NCBI GenBank assembly: GCA_963674945.2 | Contig: CAXXWQ010000003.1 | Span: forward strand, 960,001-1,024,000 | DNA: 64,000 nucleotides | DNA from: an uncultured Desulfosarcina sp. | GTDB lineage: Bacteria > Desulfobacterota > Desulfobacteria > Desulfobacterales > Desulfosarcinaceae | Reading direction: 5' to 3' | Shown here: positions 2,423-43,755 of the stretch, piece by piece | How positions within the stretch are numbered: the stretch's first letter is position 1 | Layout: each line of letters starts with the position of its first letter | Notes under the pieces: model-generated | Seen by the model: the letters and a program-made list of their open reading frames with translations, nothing else | The model's database searches: none | Told to the model about the DNA's origin: nothing | Translations under genes and position numbers: made by a program

Positions 2423-3571
2423 ATGGCCATAATGGTTCAATGCCCCCAATGTTGGAAACGTCGTTCATTAAAACATGATATATGCCCAGGTTGCGGTTTT
2501 GATCTCAAAAATGCCCGAAAACATAAAAAAGTCAAATATGTTGCGTATCTTTTTTATTCCTCAATAAACAAAAGAAAAAGTGAATATTTTGAAACCCTTA
2601 AAGAAGCTCAAGACGCTGAAAGAGAACACCAACAAATTAGAACAGAACAAGAAGATGATACCGCTTTATATTTAGGTGAAAAAGTAACCGTCGAGGGTTT
2701 GCTTAAATGGTTTTTAAGATTGAAAAAAATTCAGAAAACCGCACGTTATAAAAATGGAGTGTATTCTGCACATCGAAAACTTATCAACGCGGGCCTTGGA
2801 CCATATCCGGTAGTCAAATTGTCTTTGACAACATTGGAAGATTTTCAAGCCGACTTGGAAGAGAATTATAAATCCAATTATGTCGATTCGATATTTAAAA
2901 CCTTAAAACAAGCAATTAATAAAGGAGTGGATGATGACCAATTGCCAATAAAGGTTTTGAAACCTTTTCGAAAATTTAAGCCGAGCATGGCCAATAAAAA
3001 TGCCGATGCGCGATACCGGATTATCACACCCGAAGAATTCGATTTACTTTATCAAAAAGCACTTCCCCATCATAAACCATATCTGGCTTTGTTGTATTGG
3101 TCTGGTATGAGGCCCGGGGAGGCGCGGAATCTGGTTTGGTCGCAAGTTTATCTTAAACGTCAACAAATCATATTGGAATCTGAAGATACCAAGACCGAAG
3201 ACCCACGCATCGTCCCGATCGCTCCTCCATTAGTTGAAATCCTTAAAAACCATCCCCGAGCATTAAAAACGGACTGTGTTTTTAATTATCGTGGAGAGCC
3301 ATTAAAAAATATTTATAATAGTATGCGGGATTTATCAAAAAAAGTTGGTATTCCATGGGGTCGAAAAATTAGAGGCGGCTGGACGCTTCACGACTTACGA
3401 CACACCTGGGTGACAAATGCCAGGAAAGCTGGAGTTGCCGAATCAGTTATTATGAAAATCACAGGTCATAGGACTCGTGAAATGTTTGATAGATATAATT
3501 TTGTAGATGAATCAGATGCAATGAAGGCTGGAGACCTTTTAACCGATTTTATGAATAAGAGGATAGGATAA
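2423..3571 (+). CDS. int: tyrosine recombinase / phage integrase with N-terminal Zn-ribbon
   Basis: Catalytic set GMRPGE, TKT, HDLRH, TGH, RY; N-terminal CPQC...CPGC. Confidence 0.95.
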   Translation: MAIMVQCPQCWKRRSLKHDICPGCGFDLKNARKHKKVKYVAYLFYSSINKRKSEYFETLKEAQDAEREHQQIRTEQEDDTALYLGEKVTVEGLLKWFLRLKKIQKTARYKNGVYSAHRKLINAGLGPYPVVKLSLTTLEDFQADLEENYKSNYVDSIFKTLKQAINKGVDDDQLPIKVLKPFRKFKPSMANKNADARYRIITPEEFDLLYQKALPHHKPYLALLYWSGMRPGEARNLVWSQVYLKRQQIILESEDTKTEDPRIVPIAPPLVEILKNHPRALKTDCVFNYRGEPLKNIYNSMRDLSKKVGIPWGRKIRGGWTLHDLRHTWVTNARKAGVAESVIMKITGHRTREMFDRYNFVDESDAMKAGDLLTDFMNKRIG

Positions 3572-5255: not shown

Positions 5256-7448
5256 GTGGATGCCATGTTAGATGTCCCTTCTTTCAGACAAAAGCCCGGC
5301 TATTGCGGCCCGGCATCGTTAAAAATGGTGCTGGGCTATCTCGGCGTTAACATCACGGAAAAGAAATTGGCGCTGATATCCGGCTGCAAACCGTCCCGTG
5401 GGATCGGTGCGGAAGGTCTGGTGTTGACCGCCCAAAAGCTCGGCTTCCATGCCCGCGTAAAGGATTTTTCTGACCTGAAGGACATCCGGGAGTGGGTCAA
5501 CCGCAAAAAGCTGCCGGTCATCGTCGACTGGTTCGCCTTCGAAGGTGGCCACTACTCGGTCGTCAGTGGCATCGACAAAGAGAACATCTATCTCGAAGAC
5601 CCGAGCCTGGGTCATCGGCGGGCGCTGAAGCTCTCGACGTTCATGCGGCTGTGGTTCGACTTCCCTACCAACTACCTCCGATCCAGGGATGATCTGATCA
5701 TCCGACGGATGATCATCATCGACAGGCGCTCCCAGTATGAACGGTTTCGGAAAACCAGCGGCTTTTATGAAGAATTGAAGAAGCTGGCGGACGGGCGGCG
5801 CGACATCCAGATCGAACGGCATCGCCTCAAACACGATCGTAAGGGATACGATTTCTACCGCATCGCCTCGCGCAACGCCGAACCGCGCGACCGGTTCATG
5901 CTCATCCGCGCCGGGGTCCACGGTGATGAAGTGGCCGGCCCGTTGACCATCCTCCATTATTTCAACCGCATCGTCGACTATGCCCACAAACGAGGGCTCA
6001 AGCTCATCATCTATCCGCTGGGCAATCCAGCCGGCTACGATGCCCGGCAGCGCTACAACACCGATGACGCCGAGGAATCGGCCGTGAACAACGATTTCGT
6101 GCGCTACGAGCTTGAAAACGGAAATATCGTGGATGATGTCCGTCGGGGCGCTAAATTCAGGCGGTGGTACTGGTCGTCCGACAGCCGGCTGCAGTTGAGC
6201 CTGCCGGCCGAAACGCGCCTCATGCACCACCTTCTGCGGCGCGACCCCCTTGAAAACATCGTCGCGGCTCTTGATCTGCATCAGGACAACATCTCCCGGA
6301 TCGACCAAGCCGCCACCTACCACTACGCATTCGGTGATCTCTCGGTCTACCGCAGGATCGTGGAGACGATCCGCAAGGCCGTGCCGGTTCTGGATCACAA
6401 GATAATCAGCGCCGGACAAACCAGCGGTATGCGAACCGACGAAGAGGGCTTCATCGTCCGGCACGACGGCACCTTGGGCGATCTGCTGTCCCGGTTGGGA
6501 GTACCGTATCCGGTTACGGCCGAAACCACCGGAAGAACACCGCTCGATAAGGCTTTTCGGGTCAATTGGTTGTGGATCAAGGGGCTGATCGACCTGACGG
6601 CACGAAAACGCGCCGTCGTCAAACGGCCGTTTGCCGGCGAGGTCGCCCAACCATTCAAGAAACATGCAACCGGGCATCGCCTGATCAGAACTGGCCGCAT
6701 CGCGACGGATGCCGGCGTTCACCCCATCTACGCGGCCTTGACCCGGAACTACCGCAGCGATCTTCCCCGCATCATTCTCTCGGCCGGCATTCACGGCGAA
6801 GAACCGGCCGGCATCTATGCACTCCTGGATTTCATGAAGCGGGGCATGACCCAATTCCTGAGGCATTTTTCATTTCTGATCCTGCCCTGCCTCAATCCGT
6901 ACGGTTTCACCCGCGGTGTGCGTTACGGCAGCGGTGCGGCCGATCTAAACCGCGCCTTCGACAAGGTGTCCGGGGTGCCGGAGGTAGCGGCCGTAAAGGA
7001 TCTGATTCACCAGTTTCCCGGTCCTTACCGCCTTGCAATCGACCTTCACGAAACCGACACTTATATGCCGCGGGGCAAGGCGTTGTCGGTCGAGGACATT
7101 CCCGCCGGCTTCTATATGTACGAAACCATCCCCGACGGACGGCCGGTTCTTGGCGAGAAAATTCTCCAAGATCTCCGCACCGCAGGCTACACCATTACAA
7201 AGCGCCGATCAGTCTACGGTGCCGAATGCCGCAACGGCCTGATCGCCTCTGTTTCCCCCGACTCTCCCGACTACCCGACGCTGCCCGAATTCAACAGCAC
7301 GCTGGACTGGTATCTGCTCAAGCACTGCTACACGGACCATTTCATCGCAACCGAGACACCCACCGCCTGGCCCCTGCAACGACGGATCGCCGCCCACAAG
7401 AAAGCGCTGATCTGTACGCTCAATCACCTTAAAAAGTATTTGAAATAA
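5256..7448 (+). CDS. C39 cysteine peptidase fused to two M14 Zn-carboxypeptidase/desuccinylase domains
   Basis: QKPGYCGPASL, GHYSVV, EDP (C39); GVHGDE...DLHQD and GIHGEE...DLNR...DLHET (M14 x2); start may be ATG 5265. Confidence 0.8.
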   Translation: MDAMLDVPSFRQKPGYCGPASLKMVLGYLGVNITEKKLALISGCKPSRGIGAEGLVLTAQKLGFHARVKDFSDLKDIREWVNRKKLPVIVDWFAFEGGHYSVVSGIDKENIYLEDPSLGHRRALKLSTFMRLWFDFPTNYLRSRDDLIIRRMIIIDRRSQYERFRKTSGFYEELKKLADGRRDIQIERHRLKHDRKGYDFYRIASRNAEPRDRFMLIRAGVHGDEVAGPLTILHYFNRIVDYAHKRGLKLIIYPLGNPAGYDARQRYNTDDAEESAVNNDFVRYELENGNIVDDVRRGAKFRRWYWSSDSRLQLSLPAETRLMHHLLRRDPLENIVAALDLHQDNISRIDQAATYHYAFGDLSVYRRIVETIRKAVPVLDHKIISAGQTSGMRTDEEGFIVRHDGTLGDLLSRLGVPYPVTAETTGRTPLDKAFRVNWLWIKGLIDLTARKRAVVKRPFAGEVAQPFKKHATGHRLIRTGRIATDAGVHPIYAALTRNYRSDLPRIILSAGIHGEEPAGIYALLDFMKRGMTQFLRHFSFLILPCLNPYGFTRGVRYGSGAADLNRAFDKVSGVPEVAAVKDLIHQFPGPYRLAIDLHETDTYMPRGKALSVEDIPAGFYMYETIPDGRPVLGEKILQDLRTAGYTITKRRSVYGAECRNGLIASVSPDSPDYPTLPEFNSTLDWYLLKHCYTDHFIATETPTAWPLQRRIAAHKKALICTLNHLKKYLK

Positions 7449-9482: not shown

Positions 9483-10487
9483 TCATAATTCACGATCATT
9501 CATTCCATCTTGTGTCTCCCGGAAGATAGTAAATGACCTCTTCTTCCGACTAAGAACAACCAGCGTCTCATAGTGTATTACACCGGGCATATTGCCCAGG
9601 TCCTGAGCCACGAAATTGTGCATCTCACTTGTATTTTGATGGAATGACCATACCATGCAATCGAATGCACCAAAGGTTAGGGAAACCAATTTGACAGGTG
9701 GACGCCGCTTCAATTCATCGGTCAGCGTCTTCAGGTTGGATGGGTGGACTTTGATCAAGGTAATTCCACTGGTGGTGTACCCAAAGAATGCCGGATCAGG
9801 AATACAAATCGTCCGAACAATCTCTTGGTCATAAAGTTTAGACAAACTGAAGCGAACAGATGAAACACTGCCACCAATGACTTCGGCAAGTTCCTTTACG
9901 GATGCTCTTGGAAATTTTTCCAACCCTTTGATTACAGACAGGTCTAAGTCAGTTGGAGTGAAATCCAAGTGCGAAGAAGCAGGAGCATGATTCGTATGTG
10001 TCAAAACCGACCAACTCCTCTTAATCGACCTGGCCGATAACATTATCTCAACCCTTGCGTTTCCCAAAATACTGCCAATCTCAACGGGAAACAGCCTCAT
10101 ATACTCCTCGGGACTCCGGAATAAGGCAACTGCCAGAATATCATAACGTCCTGCAGTTAAACAAATGTATTTGGTTCTATTGATGGAGGCAAGTTGTCCT
10201 GCTATCGTGTTCACAGTTCCAGGAGCGGCATTGATTCCAAATACCACAAGGATTCTATAACCCAAAGCGACATGATCCGACAACGTGCCAATCAGGATGA
10301 CACCCGAGTCAACAAGCCTGTTCAGTCGTCTGCGCACAGTTGGCGGTGATGTGCCTAACTTTGAAGCAAGTGTTGCATAGCTCACCCGAGCGTCCTGTTC
10401 CAACTCTTTTACAAGCCTCGTATCCAACTCATCCAAGGCCGTTCGACTATTTTCAAAGCTTTCCATCAACGGCTTTTCCTCGATCAA
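9483..10487 (-). CDS. tandem (double) Lrp/AsnC transcriptional regulator
   Basis: Two HTH+RAM repeats (LDELDTRLVKELEQDAR..., TAGRYDIL; DLSVIKGLEKFPR..., TFGAFDC); divergent from the methyltransferase genes. Confidence 0.9.
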   Translation of the reverse strand: MIEEKPLMESFENSRTALDELDTRLVKELEQDARVSYATLASKLGTSPPTVRRRLNRLVDSGVILIGTLSDHVALGYRILVVFGINAAPGTVNTIAGQLASINRTKYICLTAGRYDILAVALFRSPEEYMRLFPVEIGSILGNARVEIMLSARSIKRSWSVLTHTNHAPASSHLDFTPTDLDLSVIKGLEKFPRASVKELAEVIGGSVSSVRFSLSKLYDQEIVRTICIPDPAFFGYTTSGITLIKVHPSNLKTLTDELKRRPPVKLVSLTFGAFDCMVWSFHQNTSEMHNFVAQDLGNMPGVIHYETLVVLSRKKRSFTIFRETQDGMNDREL

Positions 10488-10892: not shown

Positions 10893-12134
10893 ATGGCAGA
10901 GGTAAAAATTGGACACATGGAAAATGCTCCATCCGACTGGTACGGCGTACCGCTGGAGGATCAGCATTTTGAGTGGAGTGTGGAGGAGGAACTGATCCTC
11001 AAGCGGTTGTGCGAAAAGATCGGCGAGAACTGTGAAGAGGAAGAGATGACGCCGATGGAGCGATTTCGGGCTACCTTCGAGAAGAAAGACAAGGACCGTC
11101 TTCACATCGAATGCAAGTACAATGTCCCGTATGCCGTTCGCTGTCTTGATTCCTGGGCGGACGCCATAAAGCCCGGTGACTTATATCAGCGGCCCAAGCT
11201 TCACATCATGGGTCATCTGGCCATGGCCGCGCGTTTCAAGCTGGATATCATCAACATTTACGTGATCCACTATACGGAAGAGTGCTGGGGCGGCAACGGG
11301 CGGATGATCGACTACGGGACCCCGCAGATGGTGGGCGAGCCGCCGATCAAGACGATGGAGGATTTGGAGAGCGTATTGCCGGCCGATCCGAAGAAGCACA
11401 GCCTGTATCCCGGATACCTCTGGGCGGCCAAAGAGATAAAAACGATCATGAAAAGATACGGTGTTGCCGATAAGTTGCCTGTGGAGCTGTCGTTCTGCGG
11501 AGATCCTTTGGGCACCATGTTTTTGGGCATGACCGGTTTTGGTCCCGGCACGGTGATGATGAAGAAAAATCCCGAGCTGTTCCAGGCGTGCATGTGGAAG
11601 GCGGCGGAGTTCCAGAAGGCATTCGGCAAGGCGTGCAAGGAGACCGGCCCGGATGGATTGTACATGTGCTCTTTCATGGGATCATTTCCTCCGAAGACGA
11701 AAAAACTGGACAATACGTTCATCATGGATGTGTATGCGGACGTGGGAAAGACGATCAAGTCTCATCTGGGCAAGGATATTCCCATGTGGCATACCCTGGG
11801 CGCAAACGGATGGGAACACTGGCAGGAGCATTACTATCCCCATGGCGCTGTCGGTCCGGGCAGTTTCGACGGCTGGTGGGTCGGCCCTGAGATGGATCCC
11901 GCCTTTATCCATGCCTATGCCAGGGAAAAGGATTTGTACTGCGGGTGCAGTGTGGATGACCATATCGTTCTGGATGGCGATTTTGACGCCGTGGAAGCGG
12001 AACTGAAAGTGCGCGTTGCCGAAGCCAAGAAATATCCCAAGCACTTCCAGGCCCTCGGTGTTCTCGACTACTGGACTCCCATGGAGTATGTGGACAAGCT
12101 GTTTGATATGACCAAGAAAATGGCAAGGTTCTAA
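10893..12134 (+). CDS. uroporphyrinogen decarboxylase-fold (MtaA/CmuA-like) corrinoid methyltransferase
   Basis: MTPMERF...DR start of the URO-D fold; directly upstream of corrinoid protein; AAAGGAG RBS. Confidence 0.75.
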   Translation: MAEVKIGHMENAPSDWYGVPLEDQHFEWSVEEELILKRLCEKIGENCEEEEMTPMERFRATFEKKDKDRLHIECKYNVPYAVRCLDSWADAIKPGDLYQRPKLHIMGHLAMAARFKLDIINIYVIHYTEECWGGNGRMIDYGTPQMVGEPPIKTMEDLESVLPADPKKHSLYPGYLWAAKEIKTIMKRYGVADKLPVELSFCGDPLGTMFLGMTGFGPGTVMMKKNPELFQACMWKAAEFQKAFGKACKETGPDGLYMCSFMGSFPPKTKKLDNTFIMDVYADVGKTIKSHLGKDIPMWHTLGANGWEHWQEHYYPHGAVGPGSFDGWWVGPEMDPAFIHAYAREKDLYCGCSVDDHIVLDGDFDAVEAELKVRVAEAKKYPKHFQALGVLDYWTPMEYVDKLFDMTKKMARF

Positions 12135-12176
12135 CCATTCTCAAGTCTATACCCAATAGTAAGGAGAAAAGAGCGA

Positions 12177-12827
12177 ATGTCTAAAGAGGAAATCCTTAAG
12201 AAATTAACGGAAGCCACCGTTGAGATCGAAGACGACGATGTAATGGATCTGGTCGACGAAGCGTTGGAGGCGGGCATGGATCCCATGGAGATCATCATCG
12301 AAGGGCTTCAACCGGGTCTGACCATCATCGGTGAGGGCTTCGATGCCCATACGCGATTCACCAGCGACCTGGTTCTGGCCGGCGAGCTGTTAAACGATGT
12401 GATCACCAGGTTGAAGCCGGTGATGGAAAAAGGATCCACGGGTGTGGGCCAGAACATGGTGATCGGCACGGTGGAAGGCGACGAGCACTGCGTGGGCAAG
12501 CGTGTCGTGGCCTCGGTGTTTACCGCGGCCGGTTACAATGTGATCGACATCGGTGAGAACCAGACGGCGGATGCCTTTGTCGCGGCGGCCAAGGAGTACA
12601 ATGCCAAGGTCGTTGGCGCTTCTGCGATTTTAGGCCCCCAGAAGCCGTACTGCAAGGTGATTCATGATGCGCTGGTGGAAGCGGGCATCAGGGACCAGGT
12701 GATATACATCATCGGTGGCTGGGGCATGACGCAGGAGTGGTGCGACAAGGTTTGCGCCGATGCCTATGGCGACACCGCCAATGAAGCCATCGAGAAAGTC
12801 AAGGCGATCGTAGCCGCCAGGGGGTAG
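12177..12827 (+). CDS. corrinoid (B12-binding) protein, MtaC/MttC family
   Basis: Cap domain, GTVEGDEHCVGK (DxHxxG), VGASA, IIGG, ADAYG. Confidence 0.95.
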   Translation: MSKEEILKKLTEATVEIEDDDVMDLVDEALEAGMDPMEIIIEGLQPGLTIIGEGFDAHTRFTSDLVLAGELLNDVITRLKPVMEKGSTGVGQNMVIGTVEGDEHCVGKRVVASVFTAAGYNVIDIGENQTADAFVAAAKEYNAKVVGASAILGPQKPYCKVIHDALVEAGIRDQVIYIIGGWGMTQEWCDKVCADAYGDTANEAIEKVKAIVAARG

Positions 12828-13508
12828 AAGGGTTACACTGGCAGCCTTGATTATTTGCTCTGTGTGGCATCAGCTGCGGAACCAAATCGGGGGGGCCGAT
12901 TTGTGCGGGCCGATTTTTTCAGTTCCTCCATAATGCTGCCGAGGGCGCTTATCCAGTTGGCCGCTATCGTATGTTTTAGTATTTTTAGCATTGGCTGACG
13001 CCTTCTCGACAAACCGTCCTTTGATGGCAGTTTTCATCAGATTCACTTCGCTTCGATTAGGCTCTCCCTCTCCCGGCACCATGTCTGGAAACATCTGTGA
13101 CAAGGTTCACGCCGGGAGGGGGAGGCCATTGCGGTAGATCTTTCCGGGTACTCCGTACAAAGTACCCACAGGATACGTCGCGGATAACATCTCTGGTGTT
13201 CTTTCCGGGATGTTTTCTTCCATATTAGTGTTCATTGTTCGATACCAGTTCCATTACTGCTATAGACTTTATTTTGAGCATGTATCTATTTTTCGCTCAA
13301 ACGTTCGTGGCTCATTCCCTCTCGGATGAATCCCGAAAGTTGAGTTTTAAGATATTTTCCAACTGATTACTACCCTGATCGTCATTATCATCCAGAGGGC
13401 AGATGATCTAAAGGTCGTAATGACATACGTTTCTAATTTATGCTTTCTGGTTGAAAATAAAAAAGTAAATGCAGAAAGATCATTGGATTTGAAAAGGAGA
13501 AAGACCGG

Positions 13509-13979
13509 ATGAAGAACATGTACGGCAAGGAACTCAAATTCCCTGAAGATCTCTATTATTCGGAAGAGTTTATCTGGGTCAAGGACCTGGGTGGAAACAA
13601 GGTTCAAATCGGTATTTCAGACCTTGGTGTCAAAGCGGTGAAGGAATTGGCGCATGTCAAGATCGTTGCCAAAGAGGGTGCGCAAATCACCAAGGGGAAG
13701 CCAGTCGGGCATGTGGAAACCAGCAAGGGGATCTGGGAGATCATCGCCCCCGTAAGTGGAACCGTAGCCGCGATCAATCCGCCCCTTACCAAGGGAAACG
13801 CCAATCCCATCCAGATGGATTCGTATGGCAAAGGCTGGGTGATGGAAGTTGAAACCGCCGATGACAGTGAAGTAAGGGCACTGAAGAAGGGGGCGGATGA
13901 GGATACCAAGGCATGGATCAACGAGATGATAGAAGAAAATGTGCCATTGATGGATGAAGACGAGGACGATGATGATTAG
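13509..13979 (+). CDS. gcvH: glycine cleavage H-like lipoyl-carrier protein, copy 1
   Basis: FPEDLYYS, VETSKG (lipoyl-Lys position), APVSG, YGKGW; acidic tail. Confidence 0.85.
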   Translation: MKNMYGKELKFPEDLYYSEEFIWVKDLGGNKVQIGISDLGVKAVKELAHVKIVAKEGAQITKGKPVGHVETSKGIWEIIAPVSGTVAAINPPLTKGNANPIQMDSYGKGWVMEVETADDSEVRALKKGADEDTKAWINEMIEENVPLMDEDEDDDD

Positions 13980-14029
13980 GTCGGCCATTACCGATTCGGA
14001 GAATTATAAAGAAAAGGGGTTACCATTAC

Positions 14030-14929
14030 ATGTTTGAATTCGCTACGGAACAGAAAGTATTCGATATCGCCGGCGTCAAAGTCGGCGGCAAGCCCGGAGA
14101 GAACCCTTCCGTCATGATCGGCAGCATGTTCTTCCGCGGTCACAAGATCGTCAAGGATACCGATAAAGGAATCTTCGATAAGGACAAAGCCAAGGCATTG
14201 CTGGACAAAGAAGAAGAATTGTCGCTGAGTACCGGCAATCCGCGCATCATCGATGTCATCGGAGATACCGGTGAGGCATTGATCAACTATATCGAGTGGG
14301 TGGCGGCCAATACCACCTCCCCCATCCTGGTGGATTCTGCGCTTCCCAAGGCACGGATGGAGGCCATCCGGCATTTTGCCGGAAGCGAGCTTATCCCCCG
14401 TCTGATCTACAATTCCATGGAGGGGCACTATAAAGAAGATGAAATGGAGTGTATCGCCGAATGCGGTATCAAGAGCGTGGTGATTCTTCCCCTGACCACC
14501 AAGGCGATCAAGCCGAAAGCCAGGTTCAAACTGCTCAAGGAGAACATGTATCCCGCGGCGAAGAAAGCCGGGCTGGAAAACTTTCTGATCGACCTTGGCA
14601 TACTGGATATCCCCAGCGTCGGTTGGGCCACCCAGGCCGCCCAGCTGGTGAAAAATGAGCTTGGTTTGCCGTGGGGCTGTGCACCATCGAACGCCATTTA
14701 TCTGTGGAAGAAACTGCGTGACCGCGGCACACCGGCCTTCGAAGCCACCGCATCCGTTGTTTACGCATTGCCGCTTTGCTGGGGGGGCAGCTTCATCTTT
14801 TACGGTCCGACCCGAAACGCAAAATGGTTTTATCCGGCGGCAGGGGCGGTGGATGCCATGCTGGCCTACGGCGGAATGAACATGGGGCTGCGACCCGGTC
14901 CGGATCACCCGCTGTTCAAAATATTTTAA
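14030..14929 (+). CDS. mtrH: MtrH/MtgA-family pterin methyltransferase
   Basis: EQKVFDIAGVKVGGKPGENP, GSMFFRGHKIV, IYNS, GCAPSN, YGP, HPLFKIF. Confidence 0.9.
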   Translation: MFEFATEQKVFDIAGVKVGGKPGENPSVMIGSMFFRGHKIVKDTDKGIFDKDKAKALLDKEEELSLSTGNPRIIDVIGDTGEALINYIEWVAANTTSPILVDSALPKARMEAIRHFAGSELIPRLIYNSMEGHYKEDEMECIAECGIKSVVILPLTTKAIKPKARFKLLKENMYPAAKKAGLENFLIDLGILDIPSVGWATQAAQLVKNELGLPWGCAPSNAIYLWKKLRDRGTPAFEATASVVYALPLCWGGSFIFYGPTRNAKWFYPAAGAVDAMLAYGGMNMGLRPGPDHPLFKIF

Positions 14930-15447
14930 GGGATTTCTGGCACTGCAAGGACGAAAAATCAATTACCGCACAACAAGGGATTGATTGCAACGGCTCAATA
15001 GCGCCTTTATACGCTTTGGTAAACATCCAACAATGCATATCCTGGCGCTATACTCGTTAATTGAGAGATAACTGCCGTTCCGCTGAATTCTATTCATTTT
15101 TTTACAAGCAATAACTTGTTGCGCCCATGAGACATATTGAACTGAAGCTAGGAATGAATGCGAACAGTTGAATGATCGGTATTTTTACCGTGCAGTAATC
15201 AAAGTCATTACCGGAAATGCTTGCGGCGGGGTGGGAGCCAAAAGCATGTTTTTGCAAAACGTGGTGACGAATCACGGTTACGGAGATCGATCGTTTACAA
15301 GGCGCCAAAAGAGAGGGGGTGATCATCTTTTTTTCAAATAGGGGCAGTCATCATTTTCCATGATGAATCCAGAGTTCTATCGAATTCTCATTCTGGAGAA
15401 ATCTGGGCGCTGATGTGGGATACCAACGCATACTCGAGGAGAGGAAG

Positions 15448-17001
15448 ATGAGGCATTTGAAAAGTCAAAGGAACATTTTGATAACGATGGCATGCATTCT
15501 TGGCGTGTTTTCGTTTCTTGGATCTGCGGATGCGGCGAAATGGTATTTGGGATCCGACACACAACTACTTATGGACGTTTCACTCACCTACGGGACTGGA
15601 ATAAGGGTGTCTGACCGGGACGCCGAATTACTGGCCGATGTCATCAAAGATGACAGCAACCGGAATTTCGACCAGTGGGACTTTTTCAACAACAAGATCA
15701 CCGCCCTTGCGGACATCGAATTCATCTATAAGGACTTTGGCGTATTCGTCCGGCCCAAGGCGTTTTATGACTATGTGTACATGTCAGACAACTCCAATGA
15801 CGGTTCCAGCAATGCCACCAACAGTGCCTATGTCGGCGGCCTCATCGATGAACCGGATCAATGGGCCGATGAGATCGAGGATATCCACGGCATGAACGCC
15901 GAAATCCTGGATCTTTTCGCATATTACGGATTCCGGCTGGGCGAAGTGCCCTTTGACCTCCGTGTGGGAAAACAGGTCATCGCCTGGGGCGAGAGCAGCT
16001 ACATTCCGGGCATGAATTCGGCCCAGGCCCCCATTGATGCTGCCGCCGCGGTCGCAGTGGGAACAGAGGTAAAAGAGATCTTTCTGCCCACGGGAGCGGT
16101 TTATCTTCAGACAGGCTTCTGGGATTTCGGACTGCGCGGTTACTATCAGTGGGAGTGGGAAAAAAACAGACTGATGGAAGGCGGGACCTTTCTTTCGTCT
16201 GCGGACATGCTCGATGAAATCAAGGCGCCCCTTATAGCAGAATTAGGACCAGGGGCCTATATAAACTTGCCTCGGATAAAGGATGATGAACCCAGAGACG
16301 ACGGACAGTTCGGTGTCGCGCTGTCATATATGCTGCCGTGGGCCGCAACGGAGATCGCGGGGTATTATCTCAACTATCACGAGAAGAGCCAGGCAATTAT
16401 AGATGCCGGTGCTACCGGGTATAAGATTATCTTTCCGGAAGACATCAAGCTGTATGGCTTCACCGTCAGTTCTGTGATCGGAGACACCCAGGTAGGCTTC
16501 GAAGTCACCTATCGAGACGACATCGTCTTCCAGGACGCCGAAGCACGGACGATTAATGAGGGTGGCTTCTGGCAGACACAGGCAAGTTTTACCTACCTCA
16601 AAAGCCCGGGATGGTTCAATGTGGCGGATCGAATTATCGTGTCCGGTGAAGCCGCGTACTGCGCCCAAGTCGACCTCAAGGGGATAGAGGGACGGCCGGA
16701 AGAAGGTATCGATGGGAGAGAGGAGGAAGGTTTCAAGTATGTCGCCGTACTCAATTTTGATTGGTTCCAGGTGCTGCAAAGAACGGATTTCGGCTTCAAC
16801 GTGAAATATTCCGAAATCCCCAAAGGGGACGATTATCTCAAACCGGTAGATTTTCAGGAAAATAAAAATGCCGTCTCCGTCGGTGTGGATATGGTTTTCA
16901 ATGATGTCTGGGAAGCCGATCTTACCTATGAAAACCGATTGCACAACAATGATCTATCGGATCGCGATACGATTTCCTTTAAACTGTCATACGCATTTTA
17001 A
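15448..17001 (+). CDS. DUF1302 family outer-membrane protein
   Basis: Signal peptide, DDSNRNFD, RVGKQVIAWGES, KEIFLP, YYQWEW, DRDTISFKLSYAF. Confidence 0.85.
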   Translation: MRHLKSQRNILITMACILGVFSFLGSADAAKWYLGSDTQLLMDVSLTYGTGIRVSDRDAELLADVIKDDSNRNFDQWDFFNNKITALADIEFIYKDFGVFVRPKAFYDYVYMSDNSNDGSSNATNSAYVGGLIDEPDQWADEIEDIHGMNAEILDLFAYYGFRLGEVPFDLRVGKQVIAWGESSYIPGMNSAQAPIDAAAAVAVGTEVKEIFLPTGAVYLQTGFWDFGLRGYYQWEWEKNRLMEGGTFLSSADMLDEIKAPLIAELGPGAYINLPRIKDDEPRDDGQFGVALSYMLPWAATEIAGYYLNYHEKSQAIIDAGATGYKIIFPEDIKLYGFTVSSVIGDTQVGFEVTYRDDIVFQDAEARTINEGGFWQTQASFTYLKSPGWFNVADRIIVSGEAAYCAQVDLKGIEGRPEEGIDGREEEGFKYVAVLNFDWFQVLQRTDFGFNVKYSEIPKGDDYLKPVDFQENKNAVSVGVDMVFNDVWEADLTYENRLHNNDLSDRDTISFKLSYAF

Positions 17002-17033
17002 AAAGTCATTGTAAAAGGGGAAAGGAGAGCTCA

Positions 17034-18416
17034 ATGAACAATACCATATGCAGATCCATACTTTCCGTAATATTGACAAGCCTGCTCGTGTTTACAGCAA
17101 TTCCGGCGTATGCAAAAGTGACCGCTGAAGAGGCAGCGAAACTGAAAACCGAATTGACTCCCGTTGGCGCCGAACGGGCGGGAAACAAAGAGGGAACCAT
17201 CCCTGCCTGGACCGGCGGACTTTCCAAAATTCCCGAAGGCATCGATTATGTAGCCAAATCCGGGATACCCCATCCTGATCCCTTTGCCGATGACAAGATC
17301 CTGTTTACCATTACGGCGCAAAATGTCGACCAGTACAAAGATAAATTGTCTGCGGGTTTGCTGAAAATGTTCCAACTTCATCCGGAGACCTGGAAGATGC
17401 ATGTCTATCCTACCAGAAGATCCGCAGCATATTCCGAAGACACGTATGAGGGAACATATCAAAACGCCCTGAATACAGAGATTGTCGATGAATATGGCAG
17501 TGTAATCCATATCACCAAGGGGTTTCCGTTTCCGATTGCCAAAAACGGCGTGGAGGCCATTGTCAATTTTATTCAGAAGCCGCAAGGCGCAAAATATTTG
17601 ACCCACACGTTGGGTGGCGGGATCATATTGGCAAACGGCAGAACTACGTGGATGGCCGCAACGAACTACATTATGTACGCACTCGAAGGCGCAAATGAAC
17701 AAGCAGTAGATCCAAGAGACTATACGTATAGAATAATGTATGAACTGCGCATCCCCGGCCGCATCGGCGAGTATTTTTTCGTAATGGAACCGGCCAACTA
17801 CGAGCGAGAAGATTCCGTGGGCTGGTCTTATATACCAGGTATGCGCCGGGTGCGCCGGAATCCCGGCCTGTTTTACGATGGCGTCGACGGCACCGGCGGC
17901 GGCATTGCGTGCGTGGACGACGGGTGGATGTGGAGGGGCAAACCCGACCGGTTTGATTGGGCACTGCCCAAAGAGAAAAAAGAGATGTTCATTCCGTATA
18001 ACAACTACCAGATCGACTTGCTTCCTGATTATAAGGAAATGCAAACACCCAATCATCCCAACCCGAAATACCTCCGGTGGGAACTTCACCGGACGTGGGA
18101 GCTCGTTGCGACGCTTAAGGAAGGCAGTCGGCATATATACGGAAAAAGGGTATATTATATGGATGAAGACACATGGCTGATCGGTCTTAAGGACGCGTAC
18201 GACAAGCGCGGAAGTCTGTGGAGAGCAGCAATGGCAACCGGGAAACAACATTACGACGTTCCCGTGTACCGACAGGCCCAGTACTTTAATTTTGATTTCA
18301 CAACGGATTATTGGGTTGCAAACGGGTGGGTCAACGGGCTACCGCACGAAAGTTACGAGGAGATACCGGATGACTTTTTCACAGTTCAAAATTTACGAAG
18401 GATTGGCAAACGGTAA
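17034..18416 (+). CDS. DUF1329 family periplasmic protein
   Basis: LTPVGAERAGNKEGTIPAWTGG, VYPTRRS, PFPI, PGMRRVRR, RWELHR. Confidence 0.9.
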   Translation: MNNTICRSILSVILTSLLVFTAIPAYAKVTAEEAAKLKTELTPVGAERAGNKEGTIPAWTGGLSKIPEGIDYVAKSGIPHPDPFADDKILFTITAQNVDQYKDKLSAGLLKMFQLHPETWKMHVYPTRRSAAYSEDTYEGTYQNALNTEIVDEYGSVIHITKGFPFPIAKNGVEAIVNFIQKPQGAKYLTHTLGGGIILANGRTTWMAATNYIMYALEGANEQAVDPRDYTYRIMYELRIPGRIGEYFFVMEPANYEREDSVGWSYIPGMRRVRRNPGLFYDGVDGTGGGIACVDDGWMWRGKPDRFDWALPKEKKEMFIPYNNYQIDLLPDYKEMQTPNHPNPKYLRWELHRTWELVATLKEGSRHIYGKRVYYMDEDTWLIGLKDAYDKRGSLWRAAMATGKQHYDVPVYRQAQYFNFDFTTDYWVANGWVNGLPHESYEEIPDDFFTVQNLRRIGKR

Positions 18417-21191: not shown

Positions 21192-21237
21192 TTTTCACCT
21201 CCGTTCAAATAAAATTGAACAATTTACGCTCACTAGT

Positions 21238-21408
21238 TAGTGTCTATCCAGAAATAGGCAAATTTGGTCGAGATCAAGGCGCACGAAAAATTTTACCGCA
21301 GGTGCCCGAAGGAAATACCCTTGGGGTGCATATGGTTGATATTCCGAGGATAAAATTTTTCGCGCAACGCGGATATCGGGCAAATTGGCCATTTCTGGAT
21401 GGGTACTA
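21238..21408. mobile_element. MITE/REP-like palindromic element, copy 1
   Basis: Imperfect terminal inverted repeats TAGTGTCTATCCAGAAATAGGCAAATTTG / CAAATTGGCCATTTCTGGATGGGTACTA; near-identical copy at about 46856. Confidence 0.8.
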
Positions 21409-21409
21409 G

Positions 21410-21778
21410 TTAACGGAGAGAATAGATCTCACCAACAGCCACTTTTACCACACATTTTGGTTCGATATTCTTCTTGGAGAACAGTTCCTTGTATTGGTCG
21501 AATACTTCGCCGCTCGTCTCTATGGTGGCTTTTCCTTTGATCTGGTGCTGCTGCATAATTTCAGCATCGACGACAGTTACCGCCACATTCGGGTTTTCAT
21601 GGACATTCTTGAATGTTTTTCCTTCGCTGGCGCAGGCAAAACATATGGTTTCATCGTCTAACACCATGGGTGATCCCATGGCCACGGTGTTCGGGATGCC
21701 TTCCTTGCTCGCAGTACCCACCATGGAATACCGTTTGTTCTTAAACATCTCCTTCATCTCGTCATTCAAGACTGCCAT
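21410..21778 (-). CDS. pyridoxamine 5'-phosphate oxidase-like FMN-binding protein
   Basis: VGTASKEGIPN, KTFKNVHENPNVAV, QIKGKA; AAGGAGG RBS. Confidence 0.85.
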   Translation of the reverse strand: MAVLNDEMKEMFKNKRYSMVGTASKEGIPNTVAMGSPMVLDDETICFACASEGKTFKNVHENPNVAVTVVDAEIMQQHQIKGKATIETSGEVFDQYKELFSKKNIEPKCVVKVAVGEIYSLR

Positions 21779-21837: not shown

Positions 21838-22803
21838 TTAATAGATTACTTTTATTGGAACGCCAACCCCGCTCACCTTTTCCACAAGAGATTCGATGAA
21901 CTCCGTTTCCAGGGTATCCACACCCTCAAGCGGGTATTCCATATCCAATGCATCGTATTTCCCTGAGCCAAACTTGTGATAGGGTAAAAGATTAACCTCA
22001 ATATCACCTAACTCGTGTGCAAATTGGACGGTCTGCTCAATATTTTCCAAAGTGGCGTTGCATTCCGGTATCAAAGGGACCCTGATGATCATCGAAATTC
22101 CTTTGTCGGCAATCAGCTTGGCATTTTTCAAGATGATCTCATTACTCACACCCGTCAGCCTTTCGTGAAGCGCGGGATCAATCGCTTTGATGTCGTAGAG
22201 CACCAGGTCAACATGCTCCAGAACCGACGCCAGGGTTTCAGAGGATACAAATCCGCAGGTATCCAATGTGGTATGTAGTCCACGCTTCTGACATCTTTCC
22301 AAAAATGCCGAGAGAAAAGCCGGTTGGCCACATGCCTCACCACCGGATGCCGTTACACCACCGCCGGAATTTCGATAATAGTCCATGTCTTTCAGCACAA
22401 TATCCATCACTTCGTCCACGGTATATTCCTTGCCCGTGATCTTTCGTGCCTCATTCAAACAGGCTGATTCGCATTTCCCGCACCCGTTGCAGCGTCTCCT
22501 ATCCGTAGCCACGAATCCATCATCCCGAACCAGGATCGCTTTATTGGGGCAGACATCGATGCACCGATGGCACTGGGAGCAAAGATTTTCCCGGTACAGA
22601 ATCTCAGGACTCTTCCTCTGTGACTCAGGATTGCTGCACCACAGGCAAGCCAGCGGACACCCTTTGAAAAAGACCGTGGTTCGAATTCCCGGACCATCCT
22701 GGACGGAAAACCGCTGGATATCGAAAATGCGACCCTTCAGCTCTTCCGTTTCCTCTGCATCTACATCATTCGGTTCATAGGCGGTGGCTTGATTTGTATC
22801 CAT
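21838..22803 (-). CDS. glycyl-radical enzyme activating enzyme (radical SAM, ferredoxin insert)
   Basis: DGPGIRTTVFFKGCPLACLWCSNPES, two CxxCxxCxxxC motifs, SGGE, LLPYH. Confidence 0.95.
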   Translation of the reverse strand: MDTNQATAYEPNDVDAEETEELKGRIFDIQRFSVQDGPGIRTTVFFKGCPLACLWCSNPESQRKSPEILYRENLCSQCHRCIDVCPNKAILVRDDGFVATDRRRCNGCGKCESACLNEARKITGKEYTVDEVMDIVLKDMDYYRNSGGGVTASGGEACGQPAFLSAFLERCQKRGLHTTLDTCGFVSSETLASVLEHVDLVLYDIKAIDPALHERLTGVSNEIILKNAKLIADKGISMIIRVPLIPECNATLENIEQTVQFAHELGDIEVNLLPYHKFGSGKYDALDMEYPLEGVDTLETEFIESLVEKVSGVGVPIKVIY

Positions 22804-23061: not shown

Positions 23062-25581
23062 CTACATGGCGTGTTCCGTCCGGGTGATGATTTCGTCCCG
23101 TACTTCCGGCGTCAGCTCGATCCAGTAAGCACTGTATCCCGCAACCCGTACCACCAGGTCCTGGTAATTCTCCGGATGGGCTTTGGCATCCAGAAGGGTT
23201 TTTCTGTTCAAAATATTCAGCTGCAACTGGGATCCGCCCTTGGCAAAAAAAGTGCTAAGCAAGGCGGCAAACTTCTGCTTGCCCTCATTGCTTCCAAGAA
23301 CGCCGGCGGAAAACTTCATGTTCATCAGTGAGCTCTCCATGCCCATCATGTCACATTTCGCCGATGAATTCATCACGGCCGTGGGACCGTTCTTGTCGCA
23401 GCCGCGAACGGGTGACAACGACCCGTCGGCCAGGGGTTCCCCCTTCTTCTTCCCGTTTGGCAGCGCTCCGGTTTCTGCGGCAACCCACTGGGCCCACGCG
23501 GCGCCCTGACGGAAGAGTCTGGGCGGACGGCCAAGGATGTCACGATAGGAGAGTGCCTCGTCCCGGGTCCAGGACCAGATATGCGCCATCAGTTCGTCGG
23601 GCTCTTCCAGGTCGTTGCCGTACTTGGGATAATCCATCAGTCTTTTCCGCAGTTCCTCATGCCCCTCGAAATCCGCCTTGAGCGCCGCGAGAAGTTCGTC
23701 CATGGTGCAGATCTTGTCTTCGAACACCGCATGCTTGATCGCGATCAGAGAATCGGTGGTGTCCGGAAAGGCCCGGTCCACGAAGGAGCCGCCCTCCAGC
23801 TGCATGGCGGTCGTGCAACCATGATGGTTGCAGTCCTTGCCGCTCTCGACGCAGCCTTCCAGCCAGGCCGAGGCGATCGGCATATAGGCTTCGCCGGTGC
23901 CGTCGCAATGCCTGTCTCCATCATTTCCCAGGTTCATGTGGAAGGCGTAATGGTGCTTCACCTGTGTCTTGTAGGCTTCCAGAACCTCATCGAAGGTCGT
24001 AAATTCTCTCGGGTCTCCCGTGTCCGTTCCCAGTTTGAACCCGGAATCCGGATCCACGCCCCGATTGAGCGCCATCTGGAGCAGTTTGCCGTGATGCACG
24101 AATCCGGGCCCCGGTCCCATGCCCCAGTTGAAGGTCTTGCAGATACCGGTATTCACACAGCCGGCCATGGACCAGTCCCGCGCCTCTTCATGGGGAACAC
24201 CGCGACTCATCAGGTACTCCATGTTGTTGCGGTCGTTGAACCAGGCCGGGATGCCTGCGCCGTGATTCTTGTTGCACTCGATGGCCGCATCCAGAAATTC
24301 CGGTTTCATGGCGTGGTGATAGCGAATGGAGATGTGCGGCTGGTGCGTCCTGAGCTGGCCTGCCACGTGCAACACCATACAACCCCACTCATTGGAGCAG
24401 TCTCTGCCCCTCCGGTCGATTCCGCCCAGGGTGACGTTGACGATGTAGTTGGCCTGGGCCACCGCCTGATGGTCCCGCCGGCCCGCAAGCCCCGTGAACA
24501 GAAAAGGCTCCAGCGAATCCCAGAATACGAAGATGTTCCCCATCAGTTCCGCCGCTTCCTGGCGACTCATGCGGCCTTCGTTGATGTCCTTCATGTAAAA
24601 CGGGAACAGGTACTGATCGAAACGGCCGGCGTAATGGTTGGAGATGGCCTTTTCCATGTCGTGTACCACCGGTATGAACCAATAGGCCTGCAGCGCTTCC
24701 CTGAAGGTCCGCGGCGGATTTTCGGACACCCATTCGCACACATCGCCGATCTCTTTCAGCTCTTTCTTTCTGGTGGCGTTCTTTTCTTTCTTCGCCAGCT
24801 TGCGCGCCGCTTCGGCGTGACGCTTGATGAATACCGAAAACCCCTTCTGGCCGATGACAAAGGATTCCAGAACCTTGATCTTGTCCGTGTCCTCCAGCGT
24901 GATCTTAGCCCCTTTGCGCTTGATTTCGGATATCCGCTCTTCGATTTCGGCGATGATGCCGTTGATCCCGATCTTCAGGTACTTCTCGAAGTCGCAGCCC
25001 ACGACCAGCGGGGTGTGTTCGCCCATCTGCAGAACGCCGCCCATGTTGAGCTTGGCCTGACCCATCTGATTTCTCTTTTCGCCGCCAAAGGCCACATTGG
25101 CCGCATGGCGTTTCTTGCCCAGACCCATGGCATCCCAGTATGTGGCCGCGGCACGGATGTCCTCGATGGTTTCGTCGGTGAGTTCGGCGTCCTGCTCCTC
25201 GCTGCCGGCGCTGGCCATCTTGTCCCGGTACTCCAGGATCATCAGTATCATTTCCGGGCCAAAGGTGTGGCCCGGATAGGCACCGCGATTGTAAGGCGTC
25301 GGCTTGCCCACGATCAGCTCGCCGTCCCGGATGACGATGGGCATCTTGGCCATGAGATTGGCTTCGCCCTTGGCTTTCCGAATCGCCGGATGCTCGCCCT
25401 CGGTTTCCCTGTAGGATTCCAGCCAGTATCTGGCCCTTTCGCCGGCGATGTGAACGCCGTCTTCCCTTACCCTGTTCTTGAGCATCTTGATCCGGTCGGT
25501 GAAGCCGTTGGTCTTGTAGACCTCTTCCAGATGGATCACCCGTGGATCAACCTTCGGTTCTTTGCTTTTTGAAGCGGCCAT
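23062..25581 (-). CDS. glycyl radical enzyme (PFL-like family), paralog 1
   Basis: VRVAGYS glycyl loop, AGCVN Cys loop, GRFDQYLFPF, PKYGND. Confidence 0.95.
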   Translation of the reverse strand: MAASKSKEPKVDPRVIHLEEVYKTNGFTDRIKMLKNRVREDGVHIAGERARYWLESYRETEGEHPAIRKAKGEANLMAKMPIVIRDGELIVGKPTPYNRGAYPGHTFGPEMILMILEYRDKMASAGSEEQDAELTDETIEDIRAAATYWDAMGLGKKRHAANVAFGGEKRNQMGQAKLNMGGVLQMGEHTPLVVGCDFEKYLKIGINGIIAEIEERISEIKRKGAKITLEDTDKIKVLESFVIGQKGFSVFIKRHAEAARKLAKKEKNATRKKELKEIGDVCEWVSENPPRTFREALQAYWFIPVVHDMEKAISNHYAGRFDQYLFPFYMKDINEGRMSRQEAAELMGNIFVFWDSLEPFLFTGLAGRRDHQAVAQANYIVNVTLGGIDRRGRDCSNEWGCMVLHVAGQLRTHQPHISIRYHHAMKPEFLDAAIECNKNHGAGIPAWFNDRNNMEYLMSRGVPHEEARDWSMAGCVNTGICKTFNWGMGPGPGFVHHGKLLQMALNRGVDPDSGFKLGTDTGDPREFTTFDEVLEAYKTQVKHHYAFHMNLGNDGDRHCDGTGEAYMPIASAWLEGCVESGKDCNHHGCTTAMQLEGGSFVDRAFPDTTDSLIAIKHAVFEDKICTMDELLAALKADFEGHEELRKRLMDYPKYGNDLEEPDELMAHIWSWTRDEALSYRDILGRPPRLFRQGAAWAQWVAAETGALPNGKKKGEPLADGSLSPVRGCDKNGPTAVMNSSAKCDMMGMESSLMNMKFSAGVLGSNEGKQKFAALLSTFFAKGGSQLQLNILNRKTLLDAKAHPENYQDLVVRVAGYSAYWIELTPEVRDEIITRTEHAM

Positions 25582-30973: not shown

Positions 30974-31025
30974 TTCTTTCCTCCCATTGTTGTGTTTTTT
31001 TGAACATCGCCTGAGTTCTGGGGTA

Positions 31026-31054
31026 ACAATATCCATCGTATTTCAATATGTCAA
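31026..31054 (-). promoter_or_regulatory. sigma70 promoter of GRE paralog 2
   Basis: TTGACA-N17-TATTGT; shares TTATTTATTGACA with promoter of paralog 1. Confidence 0.7.
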
Positions 31055-40709: not shown

Positions 40710-40722
40710 CGTCTTTCCTCCT

Positions 40723-41361
40723 TCAGTGGGCGAACCCGCCGCCTGTGCGTTGTGCGACATCACCACGAACCTTGTCGAGACGGGCTTGCATGGCACCCGT
40801 GGGGCAGACCGTGACACAGGCGCCACAGGCGATACAGGCCTGATTGGGAATCATATAGGGCGTGGCGACATGTTTATGGACGCCCCGTGAACCGAACGAT
40901 ATGGCCCGAACGCCAACGACCTCCTGGCAAACGCGGACACACAGGCCGCACAAAAGGCATTCCTCTTCCGGGTTCTCCACCGTAAACCGGGTTTTTTGCA
41001 CCCCGTACTCGGCTGCAAGCTTCTGGACTTCCCTGGATGCGGGACACTCGGCAAGGAGCATCTCCAGTATCCAGCGGCGCACGTTTCGTACACGCTCGGA
41101 GTCCGTCTCGATCGTAAGGCCCTCTTCCGCCGGATACATGCAGGAGATGACCACTTTGGACCTGTCTCCCTGCTTGGCTTCCACCACACAAAGCCGGCAC
41201 GCCCCGCTGGGCTTGACGGCTTCATGGTAACAAAGGGTGGGGATGGGGATATGATAATGTCTGGCCGTCTCCAGGACGGTCCAGCCCTCTTCGGCCTCGA
41301 CCGGCTTTCCATTAATGGTGAAACGGATTTTACCGTCGTTCTTTTTATTTTCTTTGCTCAT
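40723..41361 (-). CDS. NuoG/HoxU-like 2Fe-2S + 2x4Fe-4S subunit
   Basis: IPTLCYH...GACRLCVVE...SC, CLLCGLCVRVC, CIACGACVTVCPTGA. Confidence 0.88.
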   Translation of the reverse strand: MSKENKKNDGKIRFTINGKPVEAEEGWTVLETARHYHIPIPTLCYHEAVKPSGACRLCVVEAKQGDRSKVVISCMYPAEEGLTIETDSERVRNVRRWILEMLLAECPASREVQKLAAEYGVQKTRFTVENPEEECLLCGLCVRVCQEVVGVRAISFGSRGVHKHVATPYMIPNQACIACGACVTVCPTGAMQARLDKVRGDVAQRTGGGFAH

Positions 41362-41372
41362 GATAATCCTCG

Positions 41373-43271: not shown

Positions 43272-43281
43272 TTCTTCCTCC

Positions 43282-43755
43282 TTACTCCGCGGAAAGCTTA
43301 TCGATAACCTTGTTCAACTTCCGGGACGTGACTTGGGACTGGTAGTCCTCATCCACCACCGCCACAGGGGCGAGGGCGCAGGCCCCCAGACAGTTGACCG
43401 TATCCAGGGTAAACTTGAGATCCTCCGTCGTCTCCCCGGGTCTAATGCCAAGTTCCCGGGAAAGATTGTCAACCAGACGCTGGCCGCCCTTGAGATGGCA
43501 TGCGGTGCCAAGGCAAACCTTGATTTCGTGCTCTCCCCTCGGTTCCAGACTGAATGACTTGTAGAAGGTGGCCACGGCCCACGCCTGGGTAACCGGAACA
43601 CCGACGTGATCACAGACCAGGGTCATGTTCTCCTTCGAAATGTAGTTGTACTCTGCCTGCACATCCTGCAGCAAAGCGATGAGATACCGCGATTCACCCG
43701 GGTAACTCTCAAGAATCGTGTCAATATCCTTGGCTTCTGGTTTCACGTCTTTCAT
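43282..43755 (-). CDS. nuoE: NuoE/HydC-like 2Fe-2S subunit
   Basis: VATFY, VCLGTACHLKG, CLGACALAP. Confidence 0.93.
   Translation of the reverse strand: MKDVKPEAKDIDTILESYPGESRYLIALLQDVQAEYNYISKENMTLVCDHVGVPVTQAWAVATFYKSFSLEPRGEHEIKVCLGTACHLKGGQRLVDNLSRELGIRPGETTEDLKFTLDTVNCLGACALAPVAVVDEDYQSQVTSRKLNKVIDKLSAE

Follow-up and report, generated by a model that had tools for sequence, protein, structure and literature searches.

To our knowledge, lipoate has few known jobs, namely acyl transfer, aminomethyl transfer and, as recently recognized, sulfur oxidation. The systems closest to the locus described here are known from the following reports, and statements on the literature in this text refer to the consulted parts of each source. 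In LbpA, lipoate acts as a redox cofactor (PMC6067878). In clostridial Wood-Ljungdahl clusters, gcvH and lpdA occur without the genes for the P and T proteins, with gcvH adjoining acsV and its function left open (PMC4600107). In the mec model, a URO-D methyltransferase, a corrinoid protein and an MtrH enzyme function without a thiol (bioRxiv 10.1101/2021.08.30.458270). The present locus lies in an uncultured Desulfosarcina sp., within a 64,000-nt stretch referred to as the window (CAXXWQ010000003.1, positions 960,001-1,024,000, forward strand; coordinates count from the window start). Here a GcvH-like lipoyl-domain protein, termed H1, is encoded beside a URO-D-fold methyltransferase (MT), a corrinoid protein and an MtrH-like enzyme. 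The H1 module is a rare, conserved genetic unit, and H1 is tentatively read as a dedicated redox shuttle (probability about 0.45). No report joining a lipoyl H protein to URO-D, corrinoid and MtrH genes was found in the literature searched, most subscription journals and supplements being outside its scope.

Window locus and parent operon

The locus consists of four open reading frames on the plus strand. The first (10893-12134; Pfam URO-D, 2e-8) encodes a 413-aa corrinoid methyltransferase, probably MT1, with conserved Glu129, Cys202, Cys259 and His300 and without the HxC...C site of MtaA. The second (12177-12827; Pfam B12-binding and B12-binding_2) encodes a 216-aa corrinoid protein with an intact DxHxxG motif (DEHCVG), as read from an identical copy (L005:10417). 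Beyond a 681-bp gap (12828-13508) follows H1 (13509-13979; GCV_H, 2.6e-20), a 156-aa protein with Lys73 encoded by AAG at 13725-13727 and with clade-specific Lys45, Trp76, hydrophobic residues 21-22 and a C-terminal extension. The last frame (14030-14929; MtrH, 9.5e-71) encodes a 299-aa MtrH/MtgA-like protein, a predicted methylcorrinoid:tetrahydrofolate (THF) methyltransferase (MT2) that matches PDB 6sj8 at E 1e-103. Divergent from the MT gene, a double Lrp/AsnC protein (9483-10487, minus strand; Pfam HTH_AsnC-type and AsnC_trans_reg) is likely the local regulator.

An earlier, sequence-only reading had described the H gene as embedded in a B12 methyltransferase operon. The four genes do share a strand, but they form no tight operon: the 681 bp divide the corrinoid gene from H1, with no open reading frame of at least 80 aa found inside, and the block is a mosaic of two duplicated segments. 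Positions 10900-12895 are 99.75% identical to a longer parent operon in the source genome (G000, four contigs; operon at C4:678-694 kb), and positions 13494-14929 are 98% identical to a separate part of it. The gap forms the junction of the two segments, and about 600 bp of it are specific to the window locus. A 699-base public contig spans the junction (12845-13543) in runs X1 and X2, both from one sample, and the read depth on the MT/corrinoid and MtrH genes in these runs reaches about threefold the level of unique flanks; the junction is therefore real and an assembly error is ruled out. A promoter and terminator scan stayed at chance level (5 versus 5.8 and 7 versus 5.0), and no shared operator was found 5' of the window H1. 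A tblastn search with the source genome's own gcvT, gcvPA, gcvPB and lpdA gave no match in the window, in agreement with the earlier statement that gcvP, gcvT and lpd are missing there.

The parent operon is ordered MT-COR-MT(TGA)-MT-COR-MT(TGA)-COR-MT-SCP2-H1-MtrH-RACo-LpdA-LplA-LipA (COR, corrinoid protein; TGA, in-frame stop codon), with intergenic gaps of 2-168 bp, and part of it is a tandem duplicate. Its LpdA and LipA score above the TIGR01350 and TIGR00510 cut-offs, respectively; its lipoate ligase matches Pfam LplA-B_cat at 1.5e-40, yet stays below the NCBIfam cut-offs. A divergent operon carries an oxidoreductase linked to flavin adenine dinucleotide (FAD), a CCG protein, a second H type (H2) and another FAD/CCG pair, as well as OsmC, a LipS2-like protein, LipS1, a ligase and a geranylgeranyl-reductase-family protein. 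The LipS genes adjoin H2, and LipA adjoins H1. Two additional clusters in the genome repeat MT, corrinoid, FAD/CCG and SCP2 genes together with H1 or H2. The nine GCV_H matches of the genome comprise four H1, three H2, one canonical protein and one fused domain, the canonical gcvH being located in a separate gcvT-H-PA-PB operon. MtrH adjoins H1 at three of the four H1 loci. Other close LpdA matches are found in 2-oxoacid dehydrogenase operons or elsewhere, none of them sharing a contig with the glycine cleavage operon.

All six single CCG proteins scanned give their best score with TfrB. Three types of FAD-linked oxidoreductase (L005:17761-19197, L001:9854-11308 and L004:4764-6224) are each paired with a TfrB-like CCG protein. 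Lactate and glycolate (2-hydroxyacid) dehydrogenases carry a C-terminal His/Glu metal motif; this motif is not kept in the eight aligned oxidoreductases, and their assignment as ordinary dehydrogenases of this kind was rejected. A 311-aa protein with a Cys-rich N-terminus followed by a GCV_H domain (L008:9395-10330) is encoded near two-component genes.

The H1 clade and its genetic linkage

A protein search with H1 returns 80 matches at 46-96% identity, after which the similarity drops, the E-value going from 4.5e-36 to 5e-16 (120 of the 133 matches listed). In a quick tree of 33 rows, H1 is set apart by a long branch supported at 99. By sequence, H1 is a clade of its own, distinct from canonical GcvH, and together with the separate glycine cleavage operon this counts against the refuting case, named in the earlier reading, of a protein that serves canonical glycine cleavage. 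Against the GcvH equivalog TIGR00527, H1 scores 64.6, below the cut-off of 115.85, whereas the C2 copy of the source genome reaches 165.9.

The alignment of the clade joins the window protein with all but two short matches (78 of 80), 79 sequences in total. The VETSKG motif sets Lys73 in register with the lipoyl lysine in the β-hairpin of solved H proteins, and this lysine, already pointed out in the sequence-only reading, is invariant in all 79. The fixed differences from 40 canonical-like proteins comprise hydrophobic residues at 21-22 in place of a His-Glu pair, Lys/Arg42 for Asp, Lys45 for Gly and Trp76 for Ser; the hydrophobic residues, positioned before a conserved Trp, and Trp76 are present in 79 of 79. 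The Glu of the canonical His-Glu pair holds the aminomethyl arm. The acidic C-terminal tail noted earlier is present in the window protein but is not a trait of the clade, as at least five Asp/Glu within the last ten residues occur in only 38 of 79 members.

The mean core net charge, a sequence proxy for the surface, is +3.3 for H1 (n=79) and -8.0 for the canonical-like proteins (n=40); by this proxy, H1 lacks the acidic, ligase-facing surface of GcvH. A 2026 preprint (bioRxiv 10.64898/2026.10.01.755906) pairs acidic surfaces with GcvH ligases and basic surfaces with LbpA ligases, and the basic core of H1, taken with this pairing, fits the need for a dedicated ligase. The ligase, LipA and LpdA genes of the parent operon imply that H1 is very likely lipoylated.

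The resemblance to LbpA also bears on an improbable alternative, in which a thioether or selenoether is demethylated and the oxidized lipoyl arm would capture the released RS-, HS- or HSe-, much as LbpA probably binds sulfur; the mixed disulfide or persulfide so formed would be resolved by the CCG/FAD enzymes. The LipS1, LipS2-like, ligase and geranylgeranyl-reductase-family genes of the island resemble the LbpA lipoylation set, the cores of H1 and H2 are both basic and LbpA-like, the MTs bearing selenocysteine (Sec) or Cys suggest soft substrates, and related MGC enzymes work on methyl-sulfur or methyl-selenium. However, the cysteine pair of LbpA is absent from H1, in which 48 of 79 sequences contain no Cys, 31 contain one and none contains two. 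In addition, genes for sHdr, DsrE, TusA or rhodanese were not seen among the annotated neighbours, and the TfrB-like CCG and FAD-linked oxidoreductase genes of the module include none annotated as an HdrA/B/C set.

Outside the source genome, all 15 H1 loci (12 from metagenomes and three from metagenome-assembled genomes, MAGs) have adjoining MT, corrinoid or MtrH genes. The metagenome loci come from ten datasets; such a gene adjoins H1 in every one of them, either directly or with a single SCP2 gene in between, MtrH follows H1 without a break in eight, and SCP2 lies immediately 5' of H1 in four. Among the four without MtrH, the contig ends in or just past H1 in three. The two Chloroflexota MAGs, G061 and G062, contain three H1 genes, each beside MtrH, so that the linkage spans at least two phyla. 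Given these 15 loci and the distinct clade, the link is conserved, a point that the earlier reading had proposed to check by a synteny survey. The G061 operon comprises MT, corrinoid, hydantoinase-like, MT, corrinoid, MT, MtrH, H1, RACo, LipA, FAD oxidoreductase and CCG genes, without lpdA. In G062, the position held by a FAD/CCG pair in the source genome, after H2 and before OsmC-LipS-LipS-ligase (L060:911-10574), is occupied by a TfrA/TfrB-like pair that scores 642 and 298 bits, below cut-off in either case. This arrangement suggests a thiol:fumarate reductase that would draw on a dihydrolipoyl protein, instead of coenzyme M (CoM) and coenzyme B (CoB), as its donor. G062 also contains another H-like gene, between genes that read from the sequence as selD-like and JAB-like, in a sulfur-carrier neighbourhood (L061:3669-5508). 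The unit is rare: H1 was not found in 60 relatives, in 400 genomes of its own phylum or in 400 of the phylum of G061, with at most nine candidates scored per genome in the two large searches, and a plasmid search gave canonical-level matches only.

This distribution makes it highly improbable that H1 is a passenger or a spare H protein of glycine cleavage or lipoate relay, placed outside methyl transfer. GcvH does serve as a lipoyl-relay intermediate in some bacteria, and the window H1 could have ridden along on the MtrH segment. Moreover, one of the four H1 copies of the source genome stands alone with SCP2. The window holds such a pair, overlooked in the earlier reading, in which an SCP2-like gene (59685-60038, plus strand; Pfam SCP2 8e-5; 78% to the operon copy that precedes H1) is followed by a second H1 gene (60084-60551, plus strand; 86% identical) with no MT, corrinoid or MtrH gene nearby; the region 5' of this second H1 is 74-77% identical to the upstream regions of two MT-corrinoid operons. 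Against a passenger role stand the linkage kept at every outside locus and the loss of the acidic surface that faces ligase and partners. In addition, canonical gcvH is present in all three genomes (G000, G061 and G062), and gcvP or gcvT adjoins H1 at none of the 15 outside loci or the four of the source genome, a count limited by contigs of which many measure only 1.3-4.6 kb.

Methyltransferases and probable selenocysteine paralogs

The predicted structure of the window MT (predicted local distance difference test score 94.8) adopts the URO-D TIM-barrel fold and is as much like MtaA as it is like UroD; a single-sequence search of the PDB with this protein gave no match. URO-D S-methyltransferases use a His-Cys-Cys zinc site (PMC10418091). 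Aligned with an MtaA-like reference profile of 22 sequences, which matches 4ay7 at E 3e-77, the window MT has His300 at the His position, with Leu302 and the Val390 region standing where the profile has its two Cys. The profile of MTd, the MT type most often adjoining H1, keeps none of the three. The analogy to MtaA-type thiol methylation on which the sequence-only reading was premised is thus not transferable to these enzymes. Within the family (n=55), other positions are conserved: Tyr127 in 54, Glu129 in 51, Cys202 in 50, Cys or TGA at 259 in 54, Asp356 in 50 and Tyr393 in 55. In the predicted structure, Cys202, Cys259 and His300 end neighbouring strands, and these positions could form an alternative metal site.

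Column 259 contains 48 Cys, six TGA and one Ser. The window MT is the Cys form (TGC, 11667-11669), while a single in-frame TGA occupies this column in five MT genes of the source genome, four of them distinct, and in two of G062; the paralogs of the source genome include L001:7481 (-), L005:12939 (-), L012:11564 (+), L003:18225 (-), L019:942 and L020:1256. A stem resembling a selenocysteine insertion sequence begins 13 nt past the codon in the six distinct TGA genes, with seven pairs, a GUU loop and 90.5% of positions paired. Double changes occur in four of its pairs, and one of 500 shuffles scores equally high, the structure being derived from the same six sequences, one of which pairs less well. 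None of four Cys-coded control genes folds the stem. Folding z-scores of the whole region after the TGA are mixed (-0.2 to -2.6), and covariation is confined to the short stem. The source genome encodes selA, two selB and two tRNA-Sec, and G062 encodes selB. Gene callers split the TGA-bearing paralogs in two; eight of 14 short database proteins inspected end one residue before column 259, as judged from protein entries, and the clusters of three such proteins consist mostly of sequences of one length, 256 or 267 aa. The URO-D/MtaA family is absent from a table of 119 prokaryotic selenoprotein families (PMC13188914, 2026), and the main text of BSepDB contains no URO-D/MtaA term. The TGA-bearing paralogs probably form a new family of selenoproteins, with database entries that end at the UGA. 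Another MT paralog (L014:9357-9701, at C3:547 kb), situated behind a FAD/CCG pair, has lost about 940 bases internally and in frame, and its joined form recurs in a contig of run X4.

The MtrH-like protein keeps S32, D75, D102, N129, D194, N227, Y230, R236, H38, F243 and W272 of MtgA, with Y35 replaced by F and F251 by Y, as read by eye for the pterin- and tail-binding residues of the 6sj8 alignment; the residues that bind THF are those named in PMC7154762. S32, D75, D102, N128, D188, N221 and Y224 are invariant in all 11 neighbouring MtrH proteins. The MtgA match and the kept binding residues make THF the likely acceptor. With 385.7 bits against the NCBIfam MtgA cut-off of 550, the protein is not classed as glycine betaine-specific, though it would work like MtgA.

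These enzymes give some ground to a reading, on balance doubtful, that makes H1 a methyl or alkyl carrier. Substrate-specific MT/corrinoid pairs would attach a methyl or longer alkyl group to a lipoyl sulfur, and MTd, a corrinoid protein and MtrH would unload it to THF as a soluble analogue of MtaA plus Mtr, with lipoyl in place of coenzyme M and with LpdA and the CCG enzymes keeping the arm in, or returning it to, the right redox state. A trunk ordered COR-MTd-(SCP2)-H1-MtrH recurs in the source genome and in L015, L025 and L062. MTd, which precedes H1 directly or via SCP2 in five of the 12 metagenome loci, is a clade of its own in a quick MT tree (support 99) and has no corrinoid gene behind it. 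H1 goes with MtrH and a single MT clade, and the CCG enzymes have another H protein at hand. The surface near the H1 arm is rebuilt with hydrophobic residues at 21-22 and Trp76, SCP2 directly precedes H1 at a third of the metagenome loci, the Cys202 and Cys/TGA259 positions offer a possible soft-ligand site, and MtaA methylates non-native thiols and a dithiol (PMC13618148). Opposed to this are the missing His-Cys-Cys site and the dispensability of a thiol step, since MtgA accepts a foreign corrinoid protein and the mec and Cdm models run from MT1 through the corrinoid protein to MT2. Nor is there an obvious enzyme that would process S-methyl-lipoyl further. Transfer from a thioether to THF is moreover uphill, by about 20-30 kJ/mol judging from Mtr and methionine synthase. 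The S-methyl-lipoyl relay proposed in the sequence-only reading is therefore possible but rather unlikely, the THF site kept in MtrH and the thiol-free mec model both counting against it. In its widest form, which is equally doubtful, lipoate would be a bacterial CoM: URO-D enzymes with the Cys/Sec site would form S-methyl-lipoyl on H1, MT, corrinoid protein and MtrH would pass the methyl group to THF, and a second lipoyl protein would be the heterodisulfide partner of the TfrB-like CCG enzymes. If so, a single cofactor would copy the roles of both CoM and CoB, a new job for lipoic acid.

Proposed role of H1 and comparison with known systems

The preferred reading, H1 as a dedicated redox shuttle, is built on the genes, motifs, synteny and clade described above, from which we infer lipoylation, direction, substrate and every reaction. 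The window locus would be a satellite of a module for catabolic B12 demethylation. In it, the URO-D enzyme would take a methyl group from a substrate that is probably hydrophobic and place it on the corrinoid protein in the Co(I) state, and the MtgA-like enzyme would pass it to THF for oxidation by Wood-Ljungdahl enzymes; ACS and MetF are encoded in all three genomes. RACo would reactivate the corrinoid, and the ligase and synthase of the module would lipoylate H1. The H1 arm would most likely switch between its dithiol and disulfide forms, a protein-bound equivalent of CoM-SH and CoB-SH, linking NAD(H), via LpdA, to the TfrB-like CCG/FAD oxidoreductases and perhaps also serving the reduction of the corrinoid or of the active-site Cys/Sec. 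SCP2, FadL-like and DUF1302/DUF1329 genes nearby suggest a hydrophobic substrate. The shuttle is ranked first because the full clusters carry enzymes of free dithiols (LpdA and TfrB-like CCG proteins), because a thiol is dispensable for the MT1-corrinoid-MT2 route and because the clostridial gcvH and lpdA provide a precedent.

Several observations weigh against the shuttle. The linkage of H1 is to MtrH and MT genes rather than to those for LpdA or CCG proteins, and H2, which adjoins the CCG genes, could cover all redox work. The long branch and the rebuilt, more hydrophobic surface near the arm exceed what a plain shuttle appears to need. LpdA does not discriminate between the readings, since lipoyl systems that carry groups need it too, and the LpdA of the parent operon may also serve the glycine cleavage operon, whose contig carries none.

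A conserved lipoyl clade with its own ligase, synthase and E3 offers a clean system for asking why H proteins and E3 adjoin corrinoid enzymes, and its small, soluble parts make the carrier and redox readings separable with purified proteins. The many paralogs and the uptake genes point to anaerobic demethylation of hydrophobic compounds in sediments.

Further features lie elsewhere in the window. Two glycyl radical enzymes (23062-25581 and 28457-31036, minus strand), each with GCVN in the active-site loop, accompany an activase (21838-22803) and score below the cut-off of every named family scanned. The loop occurs in seven of eight such long glycyl radical genes of the source genome. As core partners of H1 these enzymes were rejected: their best matches in G061 reach 34-36% and the same query found none in G062, which places them outside the conserved module. 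A DUF1302/DUF1329 pair (15415-18416) has many paralogs in the genome and is 86% identical in DNA to a pair adjoining the parent island. Short dispersed repeats of 80-190 bp (21233-21417, 46854-47034 and 58090-58245), present in tens of copies on all four contigs, resemble miniature inverted-repeat transposable elements or repetitive extragenic palindromic elements. A 730-aa fusion (5256-7448) joins a C39 peptidase domain to two AstE/AspA-type domains, an open reading frame that resembles a tyrosine recombinase by sequence motif (2423-3571) lies upstream of the region and may mark an island edge, and an HdrA/MvhD-like fusion with NuoEFG-like genes is read from the sequence at 38256-43755 (minus strand).

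Among known systems, the mec cassette of anaerobic dichloromethane degraders (MecE, MecB, MecF and MecH; bioRxiv 10.1101/2021.08.30.458270) and CdmBCA (PMC13222342) share with the H1 module a URO-D/MtaA-fold MT, a corrinoid protein, a second MT to THF, which in mec also belongs to the MtrH family, and a reductive activator. The consulted texts on both mention no lipoyl or glycine cleavage genes, and the MT of the module is of a distant family with Cys/Sec sites of its own. In the glycine betaine system MtgABC (MtgA PDB 6SJ8, PMC7154762), MT2 is likewise of the MtrH family and agrees with the module enzyme in the residues that bind the pterin and tail, but MT1 belongs to the MttB family instead of the URO-D fold; the module adds lipoyl genes, and its MtrH falls below the MtgA cut-off. 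MtaA, MtbA, MtsA and the type 1 mlp clusters (PDB 4AY7; PMC10418091) show 16-17% identity to the module MT, which has no His-Cys-Cys. Unlike them, the H1 module has a THF methyltransferase, and the main text of PMC10418091 contains neither 'lipo' nor 'MtrH'. In the clostridial Wood-Ljungdahl clusters (PMC4600107), too, corrinoid, methyltransferase and RACo/AcsV genes have a lipoyl H protein and E3 as neighbours while the P and T proteins are missing, but the MT and corrinoid families differ; the H1 module adds a deeply diverged H clade, CCG/FAD enzymes and SCP2. The LbpA protein of sulfur oxidation by sHdr (PMC6067878; bioRxiv 10.64898/2026.10.01.755906) is GcvH-like, with a basic surface, its own ligase with LipS1/LipS2, and CCG partners; it has two conserved near-terminal Cys, a pair that H1 lacks, and the partners of H1 are B12 methyltransferases, not sHdr. 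In conclusion, the H1 module is a real, conserved and rare new variant among B12 methyltransferase systems.

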